Assembly: GCA_032250835.1 (NCBI GenBank)
Contig: JAVVEA010000024.1
Coordinates: 1 to 41,484, forward strand
Source of the DNA: a bacterium
GTDB taxonomy: Bacteria; SAR324; XYD2-FULL-50-16
Length of the DNA: 41,484 nt
Direction: 5' to 3'
Part shown: positions 21,273 through 41,484 of the stretch, piece by piece
Position numbering within the stretch: the stretch's first letter is position 1
How the letters are laid out: the number at the start of each line of letters is the position of its first letter
Notes under the pieces: model-generated
Told to the model about the DNA's origin: nothing
Databases searched by the model: none
What the model saw: the letters and a program-made list of their open reading frames with translations, nothing else
Position numbers and translations under genes: made by a program

Positions 21273-21349
21273 CGGGGTGTAGCGCAGCTTGGTAGCGTGC
21301 CTGCTTCGGGAGCAGGAGGTCGGAAGTTCAAATCTTCTCACCCCGACCA
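21273..21349 (+). tRNA. tRNA-Pro(CGG), integration target of the island
   Basis: CGGGGTGTAGCGCAGCTTGGTAGCGTGCCTGCTTCGGGAGCAGGAGGTCGGAAGTTCAAATCTTCTCACCCCGACCA; stem CCTGC/GCAGG, loop TT-CGG-GA. Confidence 0.96.
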
Positions 21350-21351
21350 AA
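21304..21351 (+). repeat. attL, 48-bp direct repeat
   Basis: CTTCGGGAGCAGGAGGTCGGAAGTTCAAATCTTCTCACCCCGACCAAA is identical to 41318-41365. Confidence 0.95.
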
Positions 21352-21712: not shown

Positions 21713-22903
21713 ATGGCCCAACGCATCAAAACCAAATATCCAGGCGTTCTGTATCGCCCCTGCAAAGCTCAAGGTGGGTTTCAGGATGACACATTCTACA
21801 TTGTCTACATCCTCGATGGAAAGAAACATGAAGAAGCGGTGGGACGCAGGAAACGTGATCAAATGACCGCAACTATGGCCAACGGAATCCGAGCCAAACG
21901 GTTGCTGGGCGAAGAACTGCCCAATCGAACAACTCGAAATAAACCCGCCCAGCCTGAGGCAATACTCTTTGAGGAGGAGAAAAGTCCAGACTGGACGCTG
22001 CGCGCGCTTTGGAACAGCTATTTGGAGCATCAGGGCGAATACTCAAGCCGCCGAGACGATACCTACATGTTTAATCGATACCTCAGCAGATTTGGAGACA
22101 AACGCCCCGACGAGTTGGTTTATTTGGATACCCGAAGGCTGAAAATGGAAATGGAGAACGGCGGGTCATCTCCGGCAAGCATCAAATACATGCTGTCTAT
22201 GCTGCGCCGGATCGTGAGATTTGGTAAAAAGGCCCACCAAATCCCAGGACTGACTTTTGAACTGGAATTTCCCAAAGTCCCCAAGAAGATCGAGGAAGAT
22301 CTTTCGCACAGCGAAATTCAGCGGTTAGTTGGGGTACTCGACGAATGCGGCCCTGGAAACACGGCAGCCCACCTCATGCGGATCATGCTATATACAGGCC
22401 GCCGAACGGGAGAACTGCTTAAGCTCAAATGGGAGCATGTTCACTTGGAGGACCGCTACCTTGTTATCTTAGATACCAAAAACGGCGATGACCTTAAGCT
22501 TCCATTGAGCGAAGAGGTCATGAAAATGTTTCTCGCCATCCCGCGTCTTTCTAAAACTTGGGTATTCCCAGGAGCAGATGGACAAGCGATCAAATCAGTT
22601 CGGAGTGGGGCTAATACCATCAAGAAGAGAGCTAAACTCCCCCAACATTACCGGGCTACTTACTGTCTTCGACATACCTTTGCATCTATCGCGGCATCAA
22701 TGGGTATTCCCCTGGATCATATTGGCCGACATTTGGGACATACTCAAAACCCAAAATCGGTGACCGAGCGTTATGCCCGTGTTTCTCAGGATGCATTAAG
22801 GGAAGAGGCCGGACGAATTGCCGACAAGCTCAACGAGATTGCCAAGGGCCCACAACAGGGCAAAATTGCAGCCCAAATCGGCCCCTCTGGCAAAATCGGC
22901 TAG
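21713..22903 (+). CDS. int: Tyrosine recombinase/integrase
   Basis: YTGRRTGEL (R), TKNG (K), YCLRHTFAS (R, with Y in place of the usual H), LGH, TERYA (Y); N-terminal arm-binding-like region; AAGGAG RBS. Confidence 0.93.
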   Translation: MAQRIKTKYPGVLYRPCKAQGGFQDDTFYIVYILDGKKHEEAVGRRKRDQMTATMANGIRAKRLLGEELPNRTTRNKPAQPEAILFEEEKSPDWTLRALWNSYLEHQGEYSSRRDDTYMFNRYLSRFGDKRPDELVYLDTRRLKMEMENGGSSPASIKYMLSMLRRIVRFGKKAHQIPGLTFELEFPKVPKKIEEDLSHSEIQRLVGVLDECGPGNTAAHLMRIMLYTGRRTGELLKLKWEHVHLEDRYLVILDTKNGDDLKLPLSEEVMKMFLAIPRLSKTWVFPGADGQAIKSVRSGANTIKKRAKLPQHYRATYCLRHTFASIAASMGIPLDHIGRHLGHTQNPKSVTERYARVSQDALREEAGRIADKLNEIAKGPQQGKIAAQIGPSGKIG

Positions 22904-23393: not shown

Positions 23394-24080
23394 ATGTCCA
23401 AATATAGCGTCATATTTGAAATTTCGTTGGAAGCCGCCCGCAAGGAGATCGCCTTGAACGCTACGAAGTTGTCCATCGCCGAACGTCAGAGATATACTCA
23501 AAAGCATGTAGGCCTTTTCGTTCGCGAAGCTCAGAAGGAGCTTAAGGAACTGATGGAGTACATCTCCTCTGACTTCAAGGTAGAATTTTTGGCTTCGCAA
23601 AAGGGGTTCGTCCAGCCTTGGATGGCTGCCGACCCGGATTGCGTCCAGGTCTTCACAAGATATGGCTGGCTGGAAAACCTAATGGACGAACTCAAGCGGC
23701 AAGCCCTCAATCCTTGGAGGGAAGCAAATTTAAACCTGATTGAGGAGGTGACCGAAGGGAAGCCTTTTTATCGGGAAGGAGAAGACCCGGAGGATCCTGC
23801 TGTCCAGCAACGGCGATGGTCCATCGTGGTTGCCGACCAAAGGTTTTATAAGGCGATTTGCCGGGCAACCGGCATGAGCGATGCGTTGGTCAAGAAGGCA
23901 ATCGCTGCCCTTGACCGCGCGGGGATCATCGCTAAGAAGCGAAAGTTCAACAAGGTTCAATGTTATGCCATCGGCTATCATGCTAAGAAGTACAATGGCC
24001 AGCACGCCAGATACTTCTTCTTCCTCCGCAAGGAGGAGAAGGAGAATCTGATCGGCTTAAGGTTGAACCAATCCCGATAA
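23394..24080 (+). CDS. Winged-HTH protein, candidate replication initiator or regulator of the island
   Basis: AAGGA RBS; YKAICRATGMSDALVKKAIAALDRAGII HTH followed by a wing-like KRKFNKVQCYAI. Confidence 0.5.
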   Translation: MSKYSVIFEISLEAARKEIALNATKLSIAERQRYTQKHVGLFVREAQKELKELMEYISSDFKVEFLASQKGFVQPWMAADPDCVQVFTRYGWLENLMDELKRQALNPWREANLNLIEEVTEGKPFYREGEDPEDPAVQQRRWSIVVADQRFYKAICRATGMSDALVKKAIAALDRAGIIAKKRKFNKVQCYAIGYHAKKYNGQHARYFFFLRKEEKENLIGLRLNQSR

Positions 24081-24083
24081 TCC

Positions 24084-24300
24084 AACTGCCCGGCCAGGGT
24101 AGAGGCCCGCAAGGGCCGAAACCCCGGCAAGGCCAGTTTGAAAAATGAGTCTGCCGGGAAAAATGGATTGGTTAAGAAAATGGCGACCTCCGGTCGCTCT
24201 TCGTGCTTCTTCGTCCAAGGTTCGTTGCCTGATCGTGCTGTTTGGTCTGCCAAGACCGAACGGCTTCAGGCAATGAGTCCGCAGGGCGGAGGAGTACGAC
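24084..24300 (+). ncRNA. Candidate structured RNA or single-strand origin: two long rod hairpins
   Basis: Rod 1 (24084-24138) capped by GGCCC-GCAA-GGGCC; rod 2 (24201-24299) has 16+12+12 bp stems with 8 G-U pairs, valid only on the + strand. Confidence 0.5.
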
Positions 24301-25283
24301 CTATATAAATATATATAATCAGAAAATGCCGGATCATGGAGAAAACCCTTGGTTTGCAAGGATTCACGCTGAAAGACCGGTATTTCGATCCAGGCTGCGA
24401 AGCCGCATTCTACCGTATAAAAACGGAATAGGACGCAATAAAGATCAGAAGAGTGGGTCCGTTTATTGGGTTTGGAACTGGATCGACAAGGTCGAGGCTT
24501 GTGTTGGTGTCGGCAGGCAAGGGCGCTTCAAAGGCATCCCCTCTGGATCAACAGGGTTTTCTCTCTGTCTACCCCGTAGGCGTACAAGGTCCTACTGACT
24601 TGGAATGGGCTGGACCTGCTTTCCTGGGCTTTGGGGCTGCTCGCCGGATCGACGATCATCTCGTTGCCTTTGGTGGAGCGTTCACAGATTTGTGGTTCGA
24701 TTCAAGTTTGCTGGCGAAGAATCGGACACGCGAACGGAATCCCGTCAGTGAGTTATCCGCAAAGAGTCGCCCTGTTTGTACTGCTGCCCCTTAGGATAGG
24801 GGCTTGGGCAGATTTCAATCCCAGGCCAAATTCGCCGTTAAATGGCCCCATAAGCTGGAACGTGGGTTTCGGCTGGGCATGGGTGAGGGCAGCACGAATG
24901 ATGCGGCTTTAACGTCCCAAAAAAATCCGTTCCTCCTGGGCGGGTACTCGGTTGCTAGTCACCAAACCACCGGAGCCGTTAGCAGGTTGGAACGTCCAAC
25001 CTCGGGAGGTCGGGCTGTCCGGCTTCGAGAGTGCTGCTGTGGTCTACGTGATCCGTACTTTTCTTCTACTGCTTCGCAATTATTGCTGTTCTCCTGATCA
25101 CTGCATGCAGGTGGAGCGTCAGGTTTTTGCTTGTTGATCGATTTTTGGGGCTTTCGGTCGGGAATTGTGTCGGGAAACGAACGCGCAATGCTCGGCGCAT
25201 GCAACTATATGCCAGTAAAACAACCAGATAGACGATAGGCACCCCCTGCTTATAAAGCAGGAAGCCTGTAAATTTTGAGGGGG

Positions 25284-26345
25284 TCAATTGACCGCATGGG
25301 CCTGTTTCATGATTTCGAAAAACCGATCCAAGATTGCGTCTTCCGCTTTGACGTTTCCTTTTTTATCGTGGATGTAGTGATAGGAGCAAAGTACATGTGT
25401 CGGTCGTGCAGGTACCAATGCTTCGCGTATTAAGGTGTCTTGCAAACCGGAAAGCGAAACGTAATAGTCCAAACCTAGTTGTTTGCCCAGTTCCCTGTAA
25501 AAGACTACGTTTGCGGCCATAACAAGATAGCGATCTGTAAAGACCCCTCTGTCCTTGCTTGTTTCCACAAGCCCTCTCTGAACTGATTCCCACAGGTGAT
25601 CTCGTTTCGCAATTTGCTGTGAATTGTCAACATAGCGTGGCTGGGAGCTGCCGAGGGATAGGTTATGTTCGCCAAGGTAGCGCTTTATTTCTTCTTGTTT
25701 GTCGGTTGGATATTGCAGGAGTGCTTGGTAATCTTGATCTCGGGCTGTTTTGGTTTTGGTAAAGCAGACGATTTTTTCAGGATCGGTGAAATCCCATTGA
25801 TTGTTGTTCAGTTTTGGCTTGAGGAAGGTGCCTGAACGACCAAGTTTCTCCCAGGTAGTTGAATCGGCACTTTTCCACTTAACCATCGCCAATAAATCAA
25901 CATCGGCAATTCCAAATAGGTGAACCGGGAGGCGATCTGCTCTCCCGGCATTTTGCTGGATAATGGGAAGCGTGAATTCAAGAAATTCTCGCCGTTCTTT
26001 TTTGCTACGACCTACAAGGCCGCCAAGGGCGAAATATTCGCAGTTTCCAAGCATAATCCGTAAATAATGCTCTGGTTCCATCTCATGCCCTTTTGGAGCT
26101 AGGTGGTAGGCATGCATCGGCCGCAAGCTGAACTCATCGGCCATTCGGCGATAGTTTTCAGCCGTTACCTCTGGGCTCAACAAATCATCAAGCGTTGCAT
26201 ATTCGGAAATCCGATTGTGGTTTCGCTTTATGAACCGGCAGTATTGTTGGAAATAGAATTCACTAATGGGCTTTCCTTTGAAGGAAAAAGCTCCCGAGTC
26301 CACCATAAGGTGGATTTCAACCTTTTTTGTAAAACTGGACATCAT
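25284..26345 (-). CDS. dpdA: DpdA-like tRNA-guanine-transglycosylase-fold protein (candidate 7-deazaguanine DNA insertion enzyme)
   Basis: Ordered motifs LMVDSGAFS, YATLDD, PMHAYH, YFALGGLVG, VHLFGI, SADSTTW typical of DNA-acting TGT homologues; no evident C-terminal Zn-binding CxCxxC of tRNA TGT. Confidence 0.75.
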   Translation of the reverse strand: MMSSFTKKVEIHLMVDSGAFSFKGKPISEFYFQQYCRFIKRNHNRISEYATLDDLLSPEVTAENYRRMADEFSLRPMHAYHLAPKGHEMEPEHYLRIMLGNCEYFALGGLVGRSKKERREFLEFTLPIIQQNAGRADRLPVHLFGIADVDLLAMVKWKSADSTTWEKLGRSGTFLKPKLNNNQWDFTDPEKIVCFTKTKTARDQDYQALLQYPTDKQEEIKRYLGEHNLSLGSSQPRYVDNSQQIAKRDHLWESVQRGLVETSKDRGVFTDRYLVMAANVVFYRELGKQLGLDYYVSLSGLQDTLIREALVPARPTHVLCSYHYIHDKKGNVKAEDAILDRFFEIMKQAHAVN

Positions 26346-27430
26346 TTGTTATTGGAAGGCGGTATACCGATAACAACCTGCGGATTCCCGGCATATTCAA
26401 AATCCGCCATATCCCTTTCGTGGCTTAGCAGCATTTCCAGGAGGTAATATTTGTGTCGTTCCCCATTGGGGCCAATGTATCTGATTATGAGGTCTTCACC
26501 ATCGTCAACAACTCTAAAACCCATACGTCTAAACTTTTCAGTTCGGAAAAAGTCCTCTGGTCTTGTATCGTTTGTGGTTGTAACCACCTCTTGATGATCT
26601 TCCGTTTCGGATAAATCTTCTTTTTCGTTTTCGTCGTTCAAAAACCGTTCGTTCTCTTCTTCCCGCATTTTTTCCAGGACTTTTTCCGGGGAGTAAATTT
26701 CTATTCGCACGGCATCTAGCAGTTGCTTCATTTCCAAAGCTTGCATTTCCTCAACCCCTGCTATCTGGTTTATCCGACTAACCAGTAATTCCATGGTGGC
26801 CGAATTGAAAATTGCCTTGTCTTTCGATGTGATGACCGGAATCCACCAAGCATTGGCCGCACCATGCAAAACAGCCAAGGTCGAAAAATGAATCTTTAGA
26901 TCATTGATAATTAATGTTTTTTGTATTGCAGTTCCAACATACTCCAATACTTCTGCAGCATGTTTGCGAACCGTAACTTGCTTAGGTGACATCCCGATCA
27001 TTTCCCCAAAAGCTTTCAATGAAAGGGAGGAACGATCATATTTTTTGCAGTATTTCAAAGCGTAAAATCCGATTTCATAGTCGGAGTTTGATTTTCCCTT
27101 ATTCAATTTTACCCTGGCCGACATAGCCTCGGCCCCACTCGCTAGGGATTCATGTAGCTCACAAAGGATTTCTCGCACTCCAGCTCTTTTTGCTGCCTCC
27201 CAGCGGGCCATACCATCAATTATTTCCGGTTTTCCTTCATGTTCCCGAATCAGCAAGGGAGGCATCGAGTCCGGCCCTAACATCTGAATTTCCTCGACCA
27301 GTTCAGCAAGTTGTTGCTCATCTTTTCGAAATTCTGGATAGTCTGGATAGGGCTCTAGTAACTCAATCGGGACGCGCAGTATAGATTTTTGCTCTACCGA
27401 AAATCGGTCGCGAAAAGATTCTGGTTGCAT
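26342..27430 (-). CDS. ParB/Srx N-terminal domain plus HTH protein
   Basis: VPIELLEP..LAELVEEI..PPLLIRE..IIDGMARWEAAKRAG; HTH SLKAFGEMIGMSPKQV; AAGGAG RBS; ATGA overlap with dpdA. Confidence 0.8.
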   Translation of the reverse strand: MQPESFRDRFSVEQKSILRVPIELLEPYPDYPEFRKDEQQLAELVEEIQMLGPDSMPPLLIREHEGKPEIIDGMARWEAAKRAGVREILCELHESLASGAEAMSARVKLNKGKSNSDYEIGFYALKYCKKYDRSSLSLKAFGEMIGMSPKQVTVRKHAAEVLEYVGTAIQKTLIINDLKIHFSTLAVLHGAANAWWIPVITSKDKAIFNSATMELLVSRINQIAGVEEMQALEMKQLLDAVRIEIYSPEKVLEKMREEENERFLNDENEKEDLSETEDHQEVVTTTNDTRPEDFFRTEKFRRMGFRVVDDGEDLIIRYIGPNGERHKYYLLEMLLSHERDMADFEYAGNPQVVIGIPPSNNK

Positions 27431-27546
27431 CTGACTCCTTCAAATCTTGCAGTATGCCAGACCATAACATTAACCCGTGATGTTTGGAACAGTTTCGGTG
27501 ATCTTGGGAATCGAACGGAACCCAAATCACCCTTACTGGAGGCATC

Positions 27547-27849
27547 ATGGAACTCAAAACTATCAGCACTAAATCTGTCCGGCAGCGCCTGGGCGGCCAC
27601 ATCACCGAGCTTAAGTTCACCGATACCCTGTTCCTAATCGAGAAGAACGGTGAGATCGTCGGCGGACTTGTTTCCCCGGCGTTTCTGGAAGCGGCGGGTA
27701 TCAAATTGCCCGCTCGTGAAGACAAGCTGGCCCCCAAGGCCGCTGCGGACACTAAGCCTGAGCCCCCGGCAAAAGACGCAGGCGAGCAGCCCGACCCCAA
27801 GGCTTCGAGCGAGCCCGCCCCCAAAGACAGCAGCAAAAAGGCCAAATAA
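27547..27849 (+). CDS. Phd/YefM-like antitoxin-domain protein with a Pro/Ala/Lys-rich tail
   Basis: TISTKSVRQRLGGHITE..FLIEKNGEIVGGLVS matches the Phd N-terminal pattern; GGAGG RBS. Confidence 0.65.
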   Translation: MELKTISTKSVRQRLGGHITELKFTDTLFLIEKNGEIVGGLVSPAFLEAAGIKLPAREDKLAPKAAADTKPEPPAKDAGEQPDPKASSEPAPKDSSKKAK

Positions 27850-27979
27850 CGGCCCCTGGGCCGAGCTTTTACGCTTGGCCCTCAGCTTTCCCCTTACAAT
27901 CCAAATCTAACAGCCCTGCCGCGATTTTGCGACCGTACCTCAAAGGTCGGCGGCGGGGCCTATTCCTTTGTAGAAGACG

Positions 27980-28285
27980 ATGAACCAGAAACGACAATGG
28001 CGGCTCCTTCCGCAGGAGTGCGCGGGCAGCTACGAATTCAACGGTACGCTTTACGTAACCAAGGCCTTGTTTGAAGACCTTGAGCCCGAGGAGATCGGGC
28101 AGATCGTCGGCCTGATCCAGGCCAGGGTGGCCGAACAAGGCGGGGCGGACTACCTGCAAGTCCTTGAGGATGGGCAGCGAAACCGCATCTTCGCCATCGA
28201 CCAGATCAGCCGGGAGATGAAAGCCAGCGGCGACTACCGGCCAGAGGACAACCACTGGACCCTGCTTTGGGCTTGGGAGTACTAG
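27980..28285 (+). CDS. DUF960-like mobile-element protein
   Basis: YVTKA...DYLQVL...IFAID...TLLWAWEY resembles the YxTxG..DYL..LLPEEY family pattern. Confidence 0.45.
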   Translation: MNQKRQWRLLPQECAGSYEFNGTLYVTKALFEDLEPEEIGQIVGLIQARVAEQGGADYLQVLEDGQRNRIFAIDQISREMKASGDYRPEDNHWTLLWAWEY

Positions 28286-29920: not shown

Positions 29921-30805
29921 CTAAGCTTTTTGGTTGACCACCTTGCTTAACCGGTGTTTTTCAACCATCCACCGCGCAGCTTCGCCAAGGTCCTCGGGAA
30001 AATCTCTGAAGATGTGGGCAGTCCGTGGCGACATAACCGGCCCCATTTCTGAGTAAGGGAGGTCCCACTTGATTGGATCATAGCGGAACCCAAACTCGTT
30101 GTTAGCCACAGCGGCCAGTTTTAGACCTACCCGAGTCTCCATCAGGCGAGCATAAAAGAACTGCTGCTGCTGAACCGGCATCCGCTCTCCAAGAGTCAGG
30201 CTCTTGATGGCTGCCAGGGGAAGTTCCGCTAGATAGACGTCGGCACCGGAGCCCGTCTCTTTAAAGCAGTTTTTTTGTAGATGGAAGACTCGAACCTCCT
30301 GCTCGACTTCCCACTGGTTTGATTTGAACTGAAGCTCAGCAATGGGAATCGGCTCCCGGCGCATAAAATGGCTTAAAGGCAGAACTGGTCGAGAAGACAC
30401 ATATTCCACCTCGCACCTTGCCTGGAAAAAATCGTGGGTTTCATCGAACTCGATCAAGACTCCCGTATAGTCTTGGGCATAATGGGCCCACATTGAAAGG
30501 GAGTCTGGGTTTTTAGAAAGACACAAGATTCCGATGGTCGAATTCAACTGTTCACGTATCTGCCTTGCAATGAGATCACTTTTGTTACCTGTATCACTAA
30601 GCACCGAAAGGTCCAGAATGGAGTTGCGACGGGGAGCGGTCAGATCGAATGAAAGCTGATGGCTGGCCTGACTGTTCTGCGGCTCGACTAGGATTTCTGG
30701 CAACAATTCAAACGGATCATTGAGAAGATTGGGTTGAGTGAACCTGATTTTCCCATCGATAATCTTTTCTGCGATAGGTGCTGAAACATATTTATACAAG
30801 GGCAT
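29921..30805 (-). CDS. DUF2971-like protein (predicted ADP-ribosyltransferase-like fold)
   Basis: LYKY, NDPFE, ILCLS, MWAHYA, GVLIEFD, K..WEVEQEVR. Confidence 0.8.
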   Translation of the reverse strand: MPLYKYVSAPIAEKIIDGKIRFTQPNLLNDPFELLPEILVEPQNSQASHQLSFDLTAPRRNSILDLSVLSDTGNKSDLIARQIREQLNSTIGILCLSKNPDSLSMWAHYAQDYTGVLIEFDETHDFFQARCEVEYVSSRPVLPLSHFMRREPIPIAELQFKSNQWEVEQEVRVFHLQKNCFKETGSGADVYLAELPLAAIKSLTLGERMPVQQQQFFYARLMETRVGLKLAAVANNEFGFRYDPIKWDLPYSEMGPVMSPRTAHIFRDFPEDLGEAARWMVEKHRLSKVVNQKA

Positions 30806-33021: not shown

Positions 33022-35778
33022 ATGCCTAAGCCCGAAGAGAAAGCTAGAGCAAAGATTGATACCCTACTGACGGCGGCGGGCTGGGCGATTCAGTCCTATG
33101 CTAAGTTCAAGGCCAGCCCTAGCCCGAAGTTGGGCATTGCCGTTTGTGAGCACCCAGTCGCCGCAGGGGACGCCGACTATCTCCTGTTCATTGGGGGCAA
33201 GGCTGCGGGCGTCATTGAGGCCAAGAAGGCGGGAGAAACGCTGAGCGGCGTTGCTGGGCAGTCGATGAAATACCTGAACTCCTTCCCGGACGATCTCCCG
33301 GCTTGGTATAATCCTCTCCAGCTTCACTACGAGTCCAACGGCGAAGAAATCTACTTCCGCGACCGCCGCGACCCCAAGGCCAAGTCCAGGAAGGTCTTCG
33401 CCTTCCACCAGCCCGAAACCCTAAAAGCCCAGCTTGAGGAAGATAAGACCCTCCGGGGACACTTCCATTCGCTCCCGGCCCTGGTGACCGAACCCTTACG
33501 AGAATGCCAGATCAAGGCGATCAACAAGATTGAAGCCAGTATGGCCAAGGGGAAGCAGAAGGCCTTGGTTCACATGGCCACCGGCTCGGGCAAGACGTTC
33601 ATGGCCTGTAACCTCTCTTGGCGTTTAATCAAACATGCGGGCATCAAGCGGGTTCTGTTCCTGGTAGATCGCCGGAACCTAGGCAAGCAAGCCCTCAAGG
33701 AATTTGAAGCCTTTCAGCCCCCCGCTTCGGCGCACAAGTTCGGGGAGTCCTATATCCTCAAGCGGATGACTTCTAACGGCTTTGACAAAGACGCCAATCT
33801 AGTGATCAGCACGATCCAAAGGCTCTATTCCATGCTGCAAGGGGAGGAACTGACCGAGGAAGATGAAGAGGCCTCAGGATTTGAACAGGACGAACGGGGG
33901 GAAGGCGAGCCTGTACCGGTGAGCTATAACCCCAAGCTACCGATTGAGGCCTTTGACCTGATCATCGTGGACGAATGCCACCGCTCCATCTACGGGCGCT
34001 GGCGGCAAGTCCTGGATTACTTTGACGCCCATTTGGTCGGCCTCACGGCCACCCCCTCTCCCCATACCCTGGCCTTCTTCCAGAGAAACCGCGTTTATAC
34101 TTACGACTATGCCCAATCGGTGCTGGATAAGGTCAACGTGGACTATGAAATCTACCGCATCCGAACCAAGATCACCGAGCAGGGCAGCGAAATCGAAGGG
34201 GAACCGGGCTTTCATGTGCCGGTCCGGCATTTGCGGACCCGGCGTAAAAGGTTCCGTAGGCTAGACCGCAAATTATCCTATTCAGGGAAGCAACTCGACC
34301 GGGCCGTGGTTGCTCCCGATCAAATCCGGCTCGTCCTGCAAACCTTCAAGGACAAGCTCTTTACGGAGATGTTCCCCGGCCGCAGCGGTGAATGGGTGCC
34401 CAAAACCATCATCTTCGCCAAGGACGACAACCACGCCGAGGACATCACCCTGGCCGTCCGGGAAGTCTTTGAGGAGTCCAACGAGTTTTGCCAGAAGATC
34501 ACCTACAAGATCGGCCAGACCGACCCCGAGACCCTGATTAACTCCTTTCGGCTTGACCCGGAGTTCAGGATTGCCGTCACCGTGGACATGATCGCCACGG
34601 GTACCGACATCAAGCCCGTGGAAGCCCTGCTGTTCATGCGGGACGTGCGCTCCGAAATCTACTACGAACAGATGCGGGGCCGAGGTGTCCGCACCCTGCC
34701 CGATACGGACCTGCAAGCGGTCACCCCGGACGCCTCCACCAAAACCCGCTTTGTCTTGGTGGACGTGGTAGGCGTATCGGAAACCAACAAATCCATCCCC
34801 CAGCCGATGGAACGCAAGCGAAGCGTCTCCCTGGAACAGCTTCTCAAGCTGGTCGGCCAGGGCAAGGGGGACGAGGAAGATTTTGTTTCCTTGGCTGCGC
34901 GGCTGACCCGCTTGGCCGAGGAGAAGGGGGAAGACGCCGAAAACCAAGTGTTCAAGAAATGCGGTCGTAGGCTGACCGATCTGGCCCAGGGGTTGTTTTT
35001 CGCTGTTGATCCAGACAGCATTGCCGAAGCAACCAAGAAGAAATATGGGGTGCTTTATACCGATGCCCAGCTTGCCGAGGTAGCCGCAGACCTAAGGTCA
35101 AGAGCGGCCAAGCCCTTCGAGGATGAGGAGCTCATTACCTTGATCCTGGAAATCCGTAGCGAAATCGTGCTGGATGAGTTCAGCGAGGACAGCCTGCTGG
35201 AGTCCGGGTTCTCCCAGAAGGACGCCAAGGACCGGGTGGACAAGCTTTCGAAGTTCCTGGAGGAAAATAAGGACCAGCTAGAAGCCCTGCACTTCCTCTA
35301 CGAGCTGCCCCAAGCAAAAGCCAAACTCACCCATGAGGCCCTTCGGGAACTGGCCGATACCCTCACCTCTCCCCCGTGGACGCTGAACGTCGAGGGGCTT
35401 TGGCGGGCCTACAAACGGCTGGAGCAAGCCAAGGTCAAGGGGGAGCCTATCGTGGGCCTCTTGACGGAGATCATCGCCCTGGTCCGCTTCGCTATCGGAA
35501 AGGCCGAAGACTTGGAGTCCTACTCTATCCAGGCCCAGCAGCGGTACAACCTCTGGATCGGTCGCCAAAAGAAGGCGGGCCGCGAATTCGACGATGAGCA
35601 GATGGCTTGGCTGGAAAAGATCAAGCGCCACCTCATTGCCAACGGGGAGATCGTGCCCGACGACTTCCAGGAGGTGCCCGCCTTTAGTGGCGAGGGCGGC
35701 ATTGTGAAAGCCAGGGAAGTTTTTGGGAAGGACCTCGTTGAGACCATGGATGATCTAAGCAAGGCCTTGATCGCATGA
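33022..35778 (+). CDS. hsdR: Type I restriction enzyme R subunit (compact, EcoAI/EcoEI-like)
   Basis: ADYLLF..VIEAKK nuclease motif, MATGSGKT, DECHRS, LTATP, QMRGRGVR. Confidence 0.95.
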   Translation: MPKPEEKARAKIDTLLTAAGWAIQSYAKFKASPSPKLGIAVCEHPVAAGDADYLLFIGGKAAGVIEAKKAGETLSGVAGQSMKYLNSFPDDLPAWYNPLQLHYESNGEEIYFRDRRDPKAKSRKVFAFHQPETLKAQLEEDKTLRGHFHSLPALVTEPLRECQIKAINKIEASMAKGKQKALVHMATGSGKTFMACNLSWRLIKHAGIKRVLFLVDRRNLGKQALKEFEAFQPPASAHKFGESYILKRMTSNGFDKDANLVISTIQRLYSMLQGEELTEEDEEASGFEQDERGEGEPVPVSYNPKLPIEAFDLIIVDECHRSIYGRWRQVLDYFDAHLVGLTATPSPHTLAFFQRNRVYTYDYAQSVLDKVNVDYEIYRIRTKITEQGSEIEGEPGFHVPVRHLRTRRKRFRRLDRKLSYSGKQLDRAVVAPDQIRLVLQTFKDKLFTEMFPGRSGEWVPKTIIFAKDDNHAEDITLAVREVFEESNEFCQKITYKIGQTDPETLINSFRLDPEFRIAVTVDMIATGTDIKPVEALLFMRDVRSEIYYEQMRGRGVRTLPDTDLQAVTPDASTKTRFVLVDVVGVSETNKSIPQPMERKRSVSLEQLLKLVGQGKGDEEDFVSLAARLTRLAEEKGEDAENQVFKKCGRRLTDLAQGLFFAVDPDSIAEATKKKYGVLYTDAQLAEVAADLRSRAAKPFEDEELITLILEIRSEIVLDEFSEDSLLESGFSQKDAKDRVDKLSKFLEENKDQLEALHFLYELPQAKAKLTHEALRELADTLTSPPWTLNVEGLWRAYKRLEQAKVKGEPIVGLLTEIIALVRFAIGKAEDLESYSIQAQQRYNLWIGRQKKAGREFDDEQMAWLEKIKRHLIANGEIVPDDFQEVPAFSGEGGIVKAREVFGKDLVETMDDLSKALIA

Positions 35779-37328
35779 ACCAGCCGACGGAATCAAAGGA
35801 GCATCTGCCGCAGGGGTGGACAGAAACAACGCTAGAAGCTGTATCCTTGCCGTTTCGCGCCAAGATCAAACCTAGCTCCAGCTCAAAGCTCCCGTTTATT
35901 GGGATGGAAGACATTGAGGCTGGGGCGATGACGCTGAGTTCCGTTGGTCGCTTCGCGGAGATGAAAAGTGCAGCAGCTCCCTTTTTTCCAGGGGATGTCC
36001 TCTATGGAAAGATGCGACCGTACCTAAATAAGGTCCATGAAGCCAACCAAACCGGAGCATGTTCCGCTGAGTTTTTGGTTTTCCCCTCGAACCCCTACTT
36101 GAACAGCTCCTTCCTGCGTTTCTTGCTGCACAACCGGGCCTTCGTTCGGTTCGCAGCCCACCCAGACAAAATGACCGGTGACCGCCCACGCATCGACTTC
36201 GATGACATCAAGGGTTACCAGTTTTTACTTCCCCCCCTGGATGAGCAGGCACGCATCGTAGAGCGGATCGAGCAGTTGTTCCAGCAGGTGGAGGAGGGGG
36301 AAAAGGCCCTCAAGGCTGCCCAGAAGCTGGTGGAAAAGTACCGGATTTCCCTCCTCAAGGCGGCGGTCACCGGCGAATTGACCAAGGAATGGAGGGAGAA
36401 GAATCCGCCCAAGGAAACCGGAGCCGACCTGCTCAAGCGCATCCTTAAGGCCCGCCGAGAAGCCTGGGAAGCCGCCGAACTGGAAAAGTTCAAGGCCAAA
36501 GGCCAGCCCCCCAAGGACGACGCCTGGAAGAAAAAATACCAGGAACCGGCTCTCCCCTCCCCCGAGGCTATTGCCGACCTGCCGGAACTGCCGGAGGGGT
36601 GGGTTTGGGCATCCTTGGATCAACTGGCCTGGGCTTCATCTTACGGAACTTCCGTGAAGTGCTCATATGACTCCAAGGGGATCAAGGTTCTTCGTGTACC
36701 CAATATTCGCCCCGGCAGATTTGATGTCACGGACATTAAGCTGGCGTCTATCGACCTGGAGATTTCTGCGGCGGAACGGGTCCAACAAGGAGACCTTCTT
36801 TTCGTTCGGACCAATGGGAGCAAAGCGATCATTGGTGCAGGTGTGGTAGCGTGTAAGGACTTGGACGACGAGTTTTATTACGCCTCCTACCTGATCCGAT
36901 TTAGGCTGGTCGCATCGGCCTTGCCCTTTGAATGGGTCAATTTGGTCTGGCAGAGCCCAGTGGTTAGAGGGTTCATACACCAAAATGCTGCGACCAGTGC
37001 GGGCCAGTACAACATATCCCAATCTAAGGTCCAGGAACTGCCAATTCCTTTGCCGCCAAGTGAGGAAGCCGTCGAAATCTCTAGTCTGGCCAAGGCAAAG
37101 CTTGACCTCTTTGGAATCCAGAAGGAACTAGCACGAGAACAGGCAGGAGTTTTGGCCCTCCGCCAATCCATCCTCAAGGACGCCTTCTCCGGTAAGCTGG
37201 TCCCCCAAGACCCGGAAGACGAGCCCGCATCGGTGCTGCTGGAACGAATCCAAGCCGAACGAGCAGCCAGGGAAGCCGAAGCAAAGCCCAAAAAGCCCCG
37301 TGGCCGCAAGAAAAAGGGGACTGCGTGA
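35775..37328 (+). CDS. hsdS: Type I R-M specificity subunit
   Basis: LPQGW and LPEGWVW, two TRDs, LPPLDEQARIV, SLLKAAVTGEL, SILKDAFSGKLV; ATGA overlap with hsdR. Confidence 0.95.
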   Translation: MNQPTESKEHLPQGWTETTLEAVSLPFRAKIKPSSSSKLPFIGMEDIEAGAMTLSSVGRFAEMKSAAAPFFPGDVLYGKMRPYLNKVHEANQTGACSAEFLVFPSNPYLNSSFLRFLLHNRAFVRFAAHPDKMTGDRPRIDFDDIKGYQFLLPPLDEQARIVERIEQLFQQVEEGEKALKAAQKLVEKYRISLLKAAVTGELTKEWREKNPPKETGADLLKRILKARREAWEAAELEKFKAKGQPPKDDAWKKKYQEPALPSPEAIADLPELPEGWVWASLDQLAWASSYGTSVKCSYDSKGIKVLRVPNIRPGRFDVTDIKLASIDLEISAAERVQQGDLLFVRTNGSKAIIGAGVVACKDLDDEFYYASYLIRFRLVASALPFEWVNLVWQSPVVRGFIHQNAATSAGQYNISQSKVQELPIPLPPSEEAVEISSLAKAKLDLFGIQKELAREQAGVLALRQSILKDAFSGKLVPQDPEDEPASVLLERIQAERAAREAEAKPKKPRGRKKKGTA

Positions 37329-38035
37329 CGCCCCAGGAAAAAGAGGAGTTGCTGAGGTGGTTCTGGGCCTTGCGAGAGCAAGAGTACTGGCACGGAGCCC
37401 AAGACGCCAAATTTCTTGAGCACGCCCAGGCGAAATGGCCTTTGCCTCAGGGCCTAACCCCGAAGAAAGGCGAGGAGGCCCCCAAGTCCTGGGTTTTCCG
37501 GCAGTTCCTTCAAGTTTTCGCCCTCTATCGGTGGTTGCCAAAGCATACCTATGGGGAGCTGCGGTACATGGCCGATCTTTGTCATGACCTGTTTTTACCC
37601 GAATTGGGAGACAGTCCGGTGAAGGCGGCCCACCAGCGATGGATGACGGCCGTCGCCAAGTTATCCAAGCGATGGACTGGCAAGCAATTGTATTCGGCGA
37701 CCTCCAAGGTTCTCTGGCACTACCACCCGAAACATCTACCGCTTTACGATTCCTACAACTCCAGGGCACTAGCTCTTGCCTTGGGCTTAGACAAGGGGCG
37801 GAAAAGCTACTCCGTAAAGCCCGAAGATTTTCTGGATCAGTTCGCGGCCTTTTTTGAGACCCAAGGCGCAGCCCTGGAATTTTTCCGAGGGGAGCCCGAG
37901 GCCAAATACCCTTACCCCCGACGCGTGGGAGAGAAATACCTATGGCTCCTTGGAACCCAAGACCAAGGGGCCTCGCAACTCGATTCCCTGCGGGCCTACC
38001 TGCGGGCAACTGGACGTTTTCAGGAACTACTATGA
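37325..38035 (+). CDS. Putative HhH-GPD-like (DUF6308-type) DNA glycosylase embedded in the type I R-M operon
   Basis: SATSKVLWHYHPKHLPLYDSYNSRAL and RRVGEKYLWLLG motifs; GTGA and ATGA 4-bp overlaps with hsdS and hsdM. Confidence 0.6.
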   Translation: MTPQEKEELLRWFWALREQEYWHGAQDAKFLEHAQAKWPLPQGLTPKKGEEAPKSWVFRQFLQVFALYRWLPKHTYGELRYMADLCHDLFLPELGDSPVKAAHQRWMTAVAKLSKRWTGKQLYSATSKVLWHYHPKHLPLYDSYNSRALALALGLDKGRKSYSVKPEDFLDQFAAFFETQGAALEFFRGEPEAKYPYPRRVGEKYLWLLGTQDQGASQLDSLRAYLRATGRFQELL

Positions 38036-39510
38036 GCGAAACCCCATCATCCCTGGTTACCAAGGTCTGGAACTATGCCCACGTGCTTCGCGAGCAGGGC
38101 ATTAGCTACGGCGACTACCTGGAGCAGATCACCTACCTGCTCTTCCTCAAGATGGACGAGGAGCGCACCGAGTACCTTGGCCAGCCTTCGATCCTGCCCA
38201 AGGGCTTCCAATGGGAAGACTTGGTAAAGCTGGACGGAGACGACCTGGAAGCCCACTACCGGAAAACCTTGGAGAAGCTGGCGGCTGAACCGGGGATCAT
38301 CGGGACCATCTTCCGCAAATCCCAGAACAAGCTCAGCGACCCGGCCAAGCTCAAACGGGTGGTCTCCATGATCGCCGGTGAAACCTGGATGGGGATTCAG
38401 GTGGACGTGAAGGGGGCGATTTATGAAGGCCTGCTGGAAAAGAACGCGTCCGAGGTCAAATCCGGTGCGGGGCAGTATTTTACGCCCCGTGCTGTGATCC
38501 AGGCGATGGTCGAATTGGTCGCTCCCAAGGTAGGAGAAACCGTCCATGACCCAGCCTGCGGCACCGGTGGCTTCCTTTTGGAAGCCTATGAACAAATGAA
38601 GGAGCAAACCCACGATATTTCCAAGATCAGGCAATTGCGCGAGAAAACCTTCAGCGGAACGGACATTGTTCCCGATGTGGTCCGATTATGTGCGATGAAC
38701 CTTTACTTGCACGGCCTGGGCGGTGGAAACAGTCCAATTGAGGAGGCCGATGCCCTGCTTTCCGATTCGGGGACTCGCTATGACGTGATCCTAACCAACC
38801 CGCCCTTTGGCAAAAAGTCCAGCTACCGCTACGTGGACGAAGAGGGCGACATCCAGACCGAGACCGAGGAATACTCGCGGGAGGATTTCCGGTTCAGCAC
38901 CAGCAACAAGCAATTGAACTTCCTCCAGCACATCATGACGGTGATGAAGCTGACCGGCAAGGCAGGCGTGGTGCTGCCGGACAACGTGCTTTTTGAGACC
39001 GGCCAAGCTGGAGAGGGGATACGAAAACGCCTACTCCAGCAATTCGATTTCCATACCCTGCTTAGGCTTCCTACGGGCATCTTCTATAAGCCGGGCGTCA
39101 AGGCCAACGTGCTCTTTTTCGACCGCAAGCCTCCTCGGGCCGACCAAAAGCCTTGGACCAAGGAGCTTTGGATATACGACCTGCGAACCAACCTGCACTT
39201 CACCCTCAAGAAGAACCCCTTGAAGCGGGCCGACCTGGACGACTTCGTAGCCTGCTACTCGGCCCAGGACCGAAGCAAACGCAAGGAAACCGAGCGTTTC
39301 AAGAAGTTCACTTACGAGGAGCTGATCGCCAGGGACCATACGGACCTGAACATCTTCTGGATTCCCGACGAGAGCCTGGAAGACCTGGATAACCTCCCCA
39401 CGCCGGACATCATCGCCCAGGAGATCGTGGACAACCTCGCCGCCGCCTTGGAACAGTTCCGGGGCGTCGCCGAGGAGCTTGGTGGGGAGCCTATTGAGGA
39501 AGTGGAATAG
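38032..39510 (+). CDS. hsdM: Type I R-M methyltransferase subunit
   Basis: GQYFTPR, DPACGTGG (motif I), NPPF (motif IV); start at ATG 38032. Confidence 0.95.
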   Translation: MSETPSSLVTKVWNYAHVLREQGISYGDYLEQITYLLFLKMDEERTEYLGQPSILPKGFQWEDLVKLDGDDLEAHYRKTLEKLAAEPGIIGTIFRKSQNKLSDPAKLKRVVSMIAGETWMGIQVDVKGAIYEGLLEKNASEVKSGAGQYFTPRAVIQAMVELVAPKVGETVHDPACGTGGFLLEAYEQMKEQTHDISKIRQLREKTFSGTDIVPDVVRLCAMNLYLHGLGGGNSPIEEADALLSDSGTRYDVILTNPPFGKKSSYRYVDEEGDIQTETEEYSREDFRFSTSNKQLNFLQHIMTVMKLTGKAGVVLPDNVLFETGQAGEGIRKRLLQQFDFHTLLRLPTGIFYKPGVKANVLFFDRKPPRADQKPWTKELWIYDLRTNLHFTLKKNPLKRADLDDFVACYSAQDRSKRKETERFKKFTYEELIARDHTDLNIFWIPDESLEDLDNLPTPDIIAQEIVDNLAAALEQFRGVAEELGGEPIEEVE

Positions 39511-41317: not shown

Positions 41318-41365
41318 CTTCGGGAGCAGGAGGTCGGAAGTTCAAATCTTCTCACCCCGACCAAA
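41318..41365 (+). repeat. attR, 48-bp copy of the tRNA-Pro 3' half
   Basis: Identical to 21304-21351. Confidence 0.95.
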
Positions 41366-41484
41366 TTCCCGCCTTAAAGGGTGAGCGCTTGCTCGGAGCG
41401 CGCCATCTCGGAAGTTCAAATCTTCTCACCCCGACCAAATTCCCGCCTTAAAGGGTGAGCGCTTGCTCGGAGCGCGCCATCTCG
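41334..41484 (+). repeat. 74-bp perfect tandem repeat containing the tRNA-Pro 3' end (two copies plus the start of a third, cut by the window end)
   Basis: Units start at 41334, 41408 and 41482 (TCGGAAGTTCAAATCTTCTCACCCCGACCAAATTCCCGCCTTAAAGGGTGAGCGCTTGCTCGGAGCGCGCCATC). Confidence 0.92.

Follow-up and report, generated by a model that had tools for sequence, protein, structure and literature searches.

How the enzymes that exchange guanine for 7-deazaguanines in DNA are aimed and powered is understood only in part: the bacterial enzyme DpdA needs a second protein, DpdB, whereas the DpdA of phage 9g works alone. To our knowledge, DpdA enzymes are the sole route by which 7-deazaguanines enter DNA. 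A gene pair on contig JAVVEA010000024.1 of a SAR324 bacterium (GenBank assembly GCA_032250835.1) poses this question in a compact form. There, a gene for a ParB-like protein runs directly into a gene for a DpdA-like protein inside an integrative island. The window analysed is this whole contig (C16 in our numbering), 41,484 bp of a 3.66-Mb genome that is 97% complete. Our answer is that the pair probably constitutes a two-gene module for the insertion of 7-deazaguanine into DNA, in which a phage-type DpdA would use preQ0 or preQ1 made by the host with the help of a protein composed of a ParB_N domain and a helix-turn-helix (HTH), the whole being an orphan cassette of a defence island. As part of this reading, and with much the same degree of confidence, we regard the ParB-like helper as analogous, not orthologous, to DpdB.

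A coupled gene pair

The pair and its control region consist of the following features, taken from the list of open reading frames (ORFs), the sequence itself and the domain matches named.

26342..27430, minus strand: ParB-like gene, 362 amino acids (aa) (ORF list, Pfam ParB_N)
25284..26345, minus strand: phage-type DpdA gene, 353 aa, or 352 aa from the second ATG (ORF list, phrog_887)
26342..26345, minus strand: ATGA, in which the stop codon of the ParB-like gene overlaps the start codon of the DpdA gene, indicating translational coupling (sequence read, ORF coordinates)
27431..27546, minus strand: intergenic region upstream of the pair, shared with a divergent 100-aa gene (sequence)

An earlier note on this DNA had described a ParB-HTH gene coupled by ATGA to a gene with a TGT fold, in a cassette richer in AT than its surroundings, and both observations hold. 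The two minus-strand ORFs overlap as described, and the GC content is 0.449 in the pair, compared with 0.531 in the remaining island and 0.550 in the window outside the island. At the junction, the letters read AAT AAC AAA TGA TG, such that the TGA of the ParB-like gene overlaps the first ATG of the DpdA gene and a second ATG follows immediately; the entry for the DpdA-like protein in the protein collection is the 352-aa form that begins at this second ATG. An AAGGAG ribosome-binding site lies 5 nucleotides (nt) upstream of the ParB-like ATG, both ORFs are intact, and a consensus scan of the region upstream of the pair returned 0 sigma-70-like promoter sites.

The DpdA-like protein

The DpdA-like protein has no match in Pfam, NCBIfam (E<=1) or PADLOC, and the equivalog model of bacterial DpdA (bDpdA), NF041059, detects nothing in the genome at E<=0.1. 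It does match phrog_887 ('queuine tRNA-ribosyltransferase'; E 1.1e-24, residues 11-228) and, in a tblastn search, 164 phage records at 25-31% identity with E values down to 1e-12. These records include 9g, CAjan, BRET, Vid5 and Iggy; DpdA function is proven for 9g, CAjan and Iggy. The DpdA proteins of 9g, CAjan, BRET and Iggy share 26-29% identity with the DpdA-like protein (E 1e-10 to 1e-11, tblastn); gp3 of Mycobacterium phage Bipper is matched by BLASTP at E 1e-12. A HMMER search of 1.84 billion representative sequences yielded 1629 relatives at E<=1e-3, with the DpdA-like protein itself as the only match at E<1e-30. The best of the other relatives are 32-38% identical to it and none exceeds 38%; no close relative was found among species-representative genomes (one genome per species), and the gene is present in 0 of 40 related genomes. 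The earlier note had proposed to place the protein by profiles and phylogeny. The matches to phrog_887 and to phage DpdA do so at the level of the family, whereas a FastTree phylogeny of 209 members is poorly resolved, with 86 of the 206 inner branches open and the DpdA-like protein on a long branch.

The genomic company of the relatives is consistent with this assignment. Among 146 distinct immediate neighbours on viral contigs, there are 33 FolE, 16 QueF-like and 7 QueC genes, and the 81 flanking ORFs on 23 genome loci (27 loci minus three lacking a callable DpdA ORF and one duplicate, L010) include 8 FolE, 5 QueC, 4 QueF and 4 QueD.

The predicted structure leads to the same family. An AlphaFold 2 model built from an alignment that included the permuted relatives described below reached a pLDDT of 87.8 and a pTM of 0.89. 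In a Foldseek search of the viral models in BFVD, it found 23 matches at E<=1e-3 (best 1.2e-11, TM-score 0.56/0.68), all of them phage proteins that are either named 'queuine tRNA-ribosyltransferase' or unnamed. In the Protein Data Bank (PDB), the top match was 7ui4 ('DNA preQ0 insertase DpdA') and the next were ArcTGT and TGT, with probabilities of 0.97-1.00 but E values of only about 2e-3 and TM-scores of about 0.33; for a permuted chain, a low TM-score is to be expected from an aligner that follows sequence order. The family sequence profile likewise has 7ui4_A as its best PDB match (E 0.026), in an alignment that pairs DSGAF with DCGAF and S-x-DST with SIDST.

Both catalytic aspartate motifs are retained, as the earlier note had stated, DSGAFS at residues 16-21 and SADSTTW at residues 159-165. 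Matching to 7ui4, after correction for a 20-residue tag offset, pairs D16 with Asp95 of bDpdA, F20 with Phe99, D53 with Asp130, H81 with His181 and D161 with Asp256. In bDpdA, Asp95 is described as the general acid/base, Phe99 as stacking on the base, Asp130 and His181 as recognising the base and Asp256 as the nucleophile (PMC10164549), and the D95A and D256A substitutions are reported to abolish activity (Gedara et al., PMC10164549). Residues D16, S17, G18, A19 and D161 are invariant across three alignments of relatives. D53, too, is invariant, together with D16 and D161, in alignments A1, A2 and A5 (18, 26 and 42 sequences, respectively), whereas H81 does not vary in A1 and A2 and is almost constant (at least 90%) in A5. 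Judged by sequence and model, the TGT-fold gene thus encodes a phage-type enzyme of the DpdA family that has kept its active-site residues.

A predicted permutation of the barrel

In most relatives, the DSGAF strand is preceded by a module some 45 aa long (consensus MKIYLAG...RLESYHYI). The DpdA-like protein, by contrast, begins at the DSGAF strand, and its C-terminal end reads YYVSLSG...HVLCSYHYIHD; two beta-alpha units, located at the N-terminus of most relatives, make up its C-terminal part (residues ~291-351). A hidden Markov model (HMM) of the N-terminal module, made from 108 relatives, matches residues 314-345 of the DpdA-like protein with 18.1 bits, compared with at most 4.0 bits when the tail was shuffled 200 times. 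Fourteen other relatives also carry the module at the C-terminus, so that 214 classified relatives divide into 15 permuted, 101 of the N-terminal form, 84 with the module at neither end and 14 ambiguous. The 84 may have a smaller barrel, be encoded by a split gene or stem from gene calls that were cut short. In the poorly resolved tree, the permuted members do not cluster (14 changes; 162 of 500 shuffles as low).

The models point in the same direction. When the permuted relatives were left out of the alignment, the overall pLDDT was 69.9 and the C-terminal 55 residues had values of 33-45; once these relatives were added, a confident beta-alpha-beta-alpha C-terminus emerged (strands 293-297 and 317-321, helices 303-313 and 335-351), whose strands would presumably close the barrel. 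We conclude from the alignments and the models that the barrel of the DpdA-like protein is, in all appearance, circularly permuted. This is a new point: we found no published description of a permuted DpdA barrel, and the string 'permut' is absent from the 2023 DpdA preprint (10.1101/2023.04.13.536721). The permutation may matter for annotation, given that Pfam TGT, NCBIfam and PADLOC all miss the protein.

The divergence and permutation of the DpdA-like protein bring up the alternative that this TGT-fold enzyme acts not on DNA but on tRNA, another RNA or a protein, or produces a small-molecule signal by which a defence effector is controlled. Precedents have been proposed in the TIM-B domain and in a deazaguanine transferase that modifies the SMODS enzyme of CBASS; TGT-related TIM-B domains are described as effector regulators on mobile elements (10.64898/2026.10.19.760177), and the setting of the present pair, a defence island with the candidate defence gene PDC-S31 and a type I restriction-modification (R-M) system, would suit such a function. 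We nevertheless consider this alternative unlikely, inasmuch as sequence and fold lie inside the phage DpdA family, members of which occur in DNA-modification operons; the partner is a DNA-binding type of protein, ParB-like, outside the effectors named for TIM-B; and tRNA is already served by two canonical TGTs of the host. The only gene coupled to the DpdA-like gene is the ParB-like one, and PAACC, Gop, HigB, restriction endonuclease and the other effectors named in the preprint were not recognised beside it. Family membership and the kind of partner also led us to set aside a regulator of the TIM-B or P4 Beta type.

The ParB-like partner

The first gene of the pair encodes a recognisable ParB_N protein. 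Pfam ParB_N (PF02195) matches residues 16-88 (score 30.8 bits, cut-off 26.3 bits, E 3.2e-7), and TIGR00180 (parB_part) aligns to residues 19-160, including the HTH region, with 32 bits, under its cut-off of 58.45. The protein is built of the ParB N-terminal domain (residues 16-88), an HTH region extending to about residue 160, an acidic linker (~255-295) and, at the C-terminus, a domain of about 65 aa that has no relatives. Its top PDB sequence matches are the N-domains of ParB, Spo0J and Noc (E 2.8e-6). The Atlas look-alikes are ParB_N+HTH_ParB proteins and phage fusions of ParB_N to methylases; the nearest structural cluster in the Atlas is a phage 'DNA methylase/ParB N-terminal domain' fusion. 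The variant GMAR box that the earlier note had pointed out is indeed present, IDGMARWEA corresponding to IAGERRWRA of Myxococcus ParB, and the chromosomal ParBs of related genomes have GERRWRA in 7 of 7 cases.

Beyond these domains, the protein stands apart. No relative of the full-length protein or of residues 1-180 was found in a collection of 5.8 billion proteins searched with a word-based prefilter; tblastn against phages gave a single record, matched in the N-domain only, and phmmer against the ORFs of the 27 genome loci gave nothing at E<=1. By these searches, both proteins of the pair are sequence orphans, which is a further new point. Inverted repeats of at least 12 nt (parS-like palindromes) are absent from 24000-28000. 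The 10-mer CAAGGCCTTG has two exact copies in the island, and matches with at most one mismatch show no enrichment (counts as high in 10 of 100 shuffles).

The pairing has precedents. A ParB_N gene adjoins DpdA on viral contig L111 (QueC-FolE-DpdA-ParB_N) and on viral contig L119 with its near-copy L120 (QueE-FolE-QueC-DpdA-ParB_N). Mycobacterium phage Bipper has the order ParB-like, small ORF, DpdA, a further gene, QueD, QueE and FolE, with ParB_N recognised in the ParB-like gp1 at E 1.2e-4, under the cut-off, and a dpdB-like role has been suggested in print for ORF1 of mycobacteriophage CRB2, which is related to Bipper (PMC6392294). The corresponding boxes are DGEHR in L111 and DGEQR in L119, compared with DGMAR in the ParB-like protein. 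Compared by eye, the latter appears to retain the D-G-x-x-R pattern of proteins of the DndB/DpdB type. DpdB itself is described as a ParB-fold NTPase with a DGQQR box (PMC5699537), an ATPase required for the ATP-dependent insertion of preQ0 by bacterial DpdA (PMC10164549). The statement of the earlier note that no dpdB is present overlooks the ParB fold of DpdB, which makes the ParB-like gene the obvious DpdB analogue, although the DpdB model NF041060 is unmatched. In the 88 genomes of the phylum, host included, NF041060 had 0 matches, a count of little weight because the controls were silent too.

A plausible supply of precursor by the host

A two-gene module would have to obtain its precursor elsewhere; genes for preQ0 synthesis often, but not always, neighbour a phage-type DpdA. 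As the earlier note had stated, folE, queD, queE and queC are missing from the island; more generally, no que or dpd genes, including those for DpdC and DpdD-K, were recognised among its ORFs of at least 100 aa (Pfam, PADLOC, NCBIfam), the size class covered by our island scans, which took in shorter ORFs only in part. The other contigs of the host carry the pathway genes, together with full-length canonical TGTs.

Contig C22: FolE (E 2e-73, whole-genome search)
Contig C22: QueC (E 5e-72, whole-genome search)
Contig C22: QueF (E 3.5e-19, whole-genome search)
Contig C4: QueD (E 8.6e-23, whole-genome search)
Contig C4: QueE-like radical SAM protein (E 4.5e-16, under the cut-off of the B. subtilis-type model)
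C41:14864-15922: canonical TGT, full-length, copy 1 (Pfam TGT, E 3.9e-158)
C39:135781-136839: canonical TGT, full-length, copy 2 (Pfam TGT, E 1.5e-150)

Because the island has no recognised precursor genes and the host has a full preQ0/preQ1 pathway, it is plausible that the island module uses host-made precursor, as the earlier note had proposed. There is a precedent in the DpdA of phage 9g, which, expressed alone in E. coli, is reported to insert preQ0 of the host (PMC6884629).

The integrative island

The pair lies in an element bounded by copies of the 3' part of a tRNA gene. Its landmarks and other recognised cargo are the following.

About 21273-21351, plus strand: tRNA-Pro(CGG), the 3' part of which is attL, with a 48-nt core at ~21304-21351 (ARAGORN, Rfam, repeat family D1)
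21713..22903, plus strand: tyrosine integrase of the island (Pfam Phage_integrase, E 2.5e-19)
29921..30805, minus strand: DUF2971 protein, PADLOC candidate defence gene PDC-S31 (PDLC04990, E 5.8e-33; Pfam DUF2971; phrog_1762, E 7e-41)
33022..39510, plus strand: type I R-M system (Pfam ResIII, EcoEI_R_C, Methylase_S, N6_Mtase, HsdM_N)
33022-35778, 35775-37328 and 37942-39510, plus strand: hsdR, hsdS and hsdM of this system, respectively
37325-38035, plus strand: unknown 236-aa gene between hsdS and hsdM, overlapping both
~41318-41365, plus strand: attR, a 48-nt copy of the 3' part of tRNA-Pro, 20,014 nt from attL (repeat family D1)

The element is a non-phage, integrative defence island of about 20 kb at tRNA-Pro. 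The earlier note had likewise taken it for a non-phage element: attL lies in tRNA-Pro with attR 20 kb away, an integrase is present, and Pfam, PHROGs, PADLOC and NCBIfam revealed no phage structural, replication or ParA genes in the scanned ORFs of the island. The 236-aa gene inside the R-M locus has no match in these four collections, and an 88-aa HTH_3 gene adjoins the DUF2971 gene. After attR, a second partial copy of the tRNA-Pro 3' part lies at 41385-41458. The contig end (41311-41484) is a 74-nt tandem in which the 3' end of tRNA-Pro, as copied in attR, is repeated with its flank, which suggests successive integrations at tRNA-Pro and accounts for the break of the assembly at this point.

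Directly downstream of the DpdA-like gene, a stretch of 1.2 kb (24081-25283) is devoid of ORFs longer than ~118 aa in both orientations. Rfam leaves it unmatched even at E<=1, the genome contains it only once, and it could be a decayed cassette gene or an unknown RNA. On the other side of the pair, two small GC-rich genes (27547-27849 and 27980-28285, GC 0.59-0.60) diverge from the AT-rich pair; the former encodes a Pro/Ala/Lys-rich tail, and neither has a family match.

Could the cassette be an inactive, drifting remnant of a phage modification operon that has lost its que genes? Its foreign composition (GC 0.449), the lack of que genes nearby, the ORF-poor stretch just 3' of the pair, the lack of close relatives of either protein and the absence of the gene from all 40 related genomes would fit such a history. 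However, neither ORF is disrupted, coupling and ribosome-binding site persist, all active-site residues are in place in a model fold of high confidence, and the precursor is supplied by the host, so that we consider decay very improbable.

The module reading and its alternatives

In the module that we favour, the course of the reaction would follow by analogy with TGT and DpdA: a guanine would be flipped out and then displaced by Asp161 as the nucleophile, Asp16 would serve as the general acid/base, and the base would be read by Asp53 and His81. The ParB_N+HTH helper would take a DpdB-like role, binding DNA and giving the transglycosylase access to its sites through nucleotide-dependent loading or remodelling. 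The benefit would be an orphan protective mark on island and host DNA, which might allow the island to evade restriction during transfer or might protect against a modification-sensitive effector.

Several observations weigh against this reading. ParB_N is rarely found beside DpdA, in 2 of the 146 immediate neighbours on viral contigs by Pfam and in 3 of 107 loci, two of them near-identical, by our own ParB HMM, which scores Bipper gp1 at only 15 bits, such that very divergent ParB-like neighbours may escape it. The co-occurrence for which the earlier note had asked to look thus recurs in phage and viral operons but is uncommon, and most phage DpdAs evidently function without a ParB_N partner. 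In a pairwise comparison, the ParB-like protein does not resemble Bipper gp1 (E 1.9), which, on the sequences, points to either independent recruitment or extreme divergence. It is not matched by the DpdB model, it has the ParB_N+HTH architecture that is classical for partition proteins and regulators, and its GERRxRA nucleotide-binding box is altered to GMARWEA, with the Glu and the first Arg replaced. It may be dispensable for catalysis, given that the 9g DpdA is active alone in E. coli, and the DpdA-like protein, very divergent and permuted as it is, may have an altered specificity. Nor was any restriction partner dedicated to the mark recognised, so that the selective benefit is hard to name. 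Finally, we infer the DNA substrate, the inserted base, the cooperation of the two proteins and the biological benefit. A complex prediction for the DpdA-like protein (A5 alignment) and the ParB-like protein, made in two runs without controls, scored 0.00 and speaks neither for nor against binding.

Some of these observations would be accommodated if DpdA acted alone and the ParB-like protein were a regulator of the KorB/ParB type, a maintenance or partition factor of the excised element or an anti-defence protein, the coupling serving co-expression only. In line with this view, 9g DpdA alone inserts preQ0 in E. coli (PMC6884629), 144 of the 146 viral neighbours and all 81 flanking ORFs on the genome loci are something other than ParB_N, and the ParB-like protein has KorB- and HTH_ParB-type look-alikes but does not belong to the DpdB family. 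Yet the two genes share the ATGA overlap, no ParA or partition gene was recognised in the island (Pfam), ParB_N lies directly beside DpdA in three unrelated phage que-DpdA operons, DpdB provides a precedent for a ParB-fold helper (PMC10164549), and ParB_N domains accompany other DNA-modifying enzymes (PMC12783734). On these grounds, we hold independent action of DpdA to be the lesser possibility, albeit one of real weight, and give preference to the two-gene module.

A bolder version of cooperation, which we consider improbable, would make the ParB-like protein a nucleotide-gated DNA clamp that loads on island or incoming DNA, slides, and carries or activates the permuted DpdA. Were it true, the writing of 7-deazaguanine would be regional and in cis, starting from a loading site, and would not take place at every target motif. 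Base exchange would then be aimed by spreading, and the island would be shielded on transfer with host-made preQ0 alone.

Under the two-gene module reading, a minimal module that joins a phage-type DpdA to an unrelated ParB_N+HTH protein, free of genes for synthesis or restriction, offers a compact two-gene test system. The pair can address whether ParB-fold helpers are general and repeatedly recruited for DNA transglycosylases, which nucleotide they use and whether they have a role in the choice of sites. If DNA is indeed the substrate, phage-type DNA hypermodification would have been transferred, in the form of an 'orphan' mark, to integrative defence islands of bacteria.

Comparison with known systems

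The enzyme most closely resembles the phage DpdAs of the DpdA1 type, those of 9g, CAjan and Iggy (PMC6884629, 10.1101/2023.04.13.536721), with which it shares phrog_887, about 27% identity (E ~1e-11) and the fold. Phages that carry DpdA only and depend on a host with a full queuosine pathway are a described class (PMC6884629), and the DNA of Iggy is reported to contain dPreQ0, with GA as the motif that its DpdA strictly targets. The present case differs in the non-phage integrative island, the coupling to ParB_N+HTH, the apparently permuted barrel and the lack of any relative above 38% identity.

Also comparable are the phage 7-deazaguanine operons with ParB_N, namely Bipper genes 1-7, CRB2 ORF1/ORF2, L111 and L119, which likewise combine a ParB_N gene and a phage-type DpdA in one operon. 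These operons, however, carry FolE, QueC, QueD and QueE and reside in phage genomes, and their ParB_N proteins are 170-219 aa long compared with 362 aa here; moreover, DpdA precedes ParB_N in L111 and L119, whereas the ParB-like gene comes first in the island.

The Dpd system of Salmonella Montevideo, DpdA/DpdB(/DpdC) (Gedara 2023, PMC10164549; 7UI4), offers the same combination on paper, a TGT-fold transglycosylase and a ParB-fold partner; Asp95, Asp130, His181 and Asp256 have counterparts here, and preQ0 comes from the queuosine pathway of the host. In contrast to that system, neither protein of the pair matches NF041059, NF041060 or any PADLOC model, and DpdC and the restriction genes DpdD-K were not recognised in the island. 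DpdB has DGQQR and an SspE-like helical C-domain, whereas the partner here has DGMAR and ParB_N+HTH, the ParB fold being common to both.

Two further comparisons concern the partner. ParB_N modules also occur in fusion with, or next to, phage DNA methyltransferases and further enzymes that modify DNA (PMC12783734), but in the present case the enzyme is a transglycosylase and the two proteins are separate. With the ParB/Spo0J/Noc CTPases, the partner shares a ParB N-terminal domain above the Pfam cut-off; it differs from them in the altered GERR box and the TIGR00180 score under cut-off, and the island has no recognised ParA and no long palindrome near the pair. The core of what the earlier note proposed holds. 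Taken together, these comparisons make the pair a reduced, transplanted form of the known theme of DpdA with a ParB-fold partner, and less novel than the earlier note had claimed.

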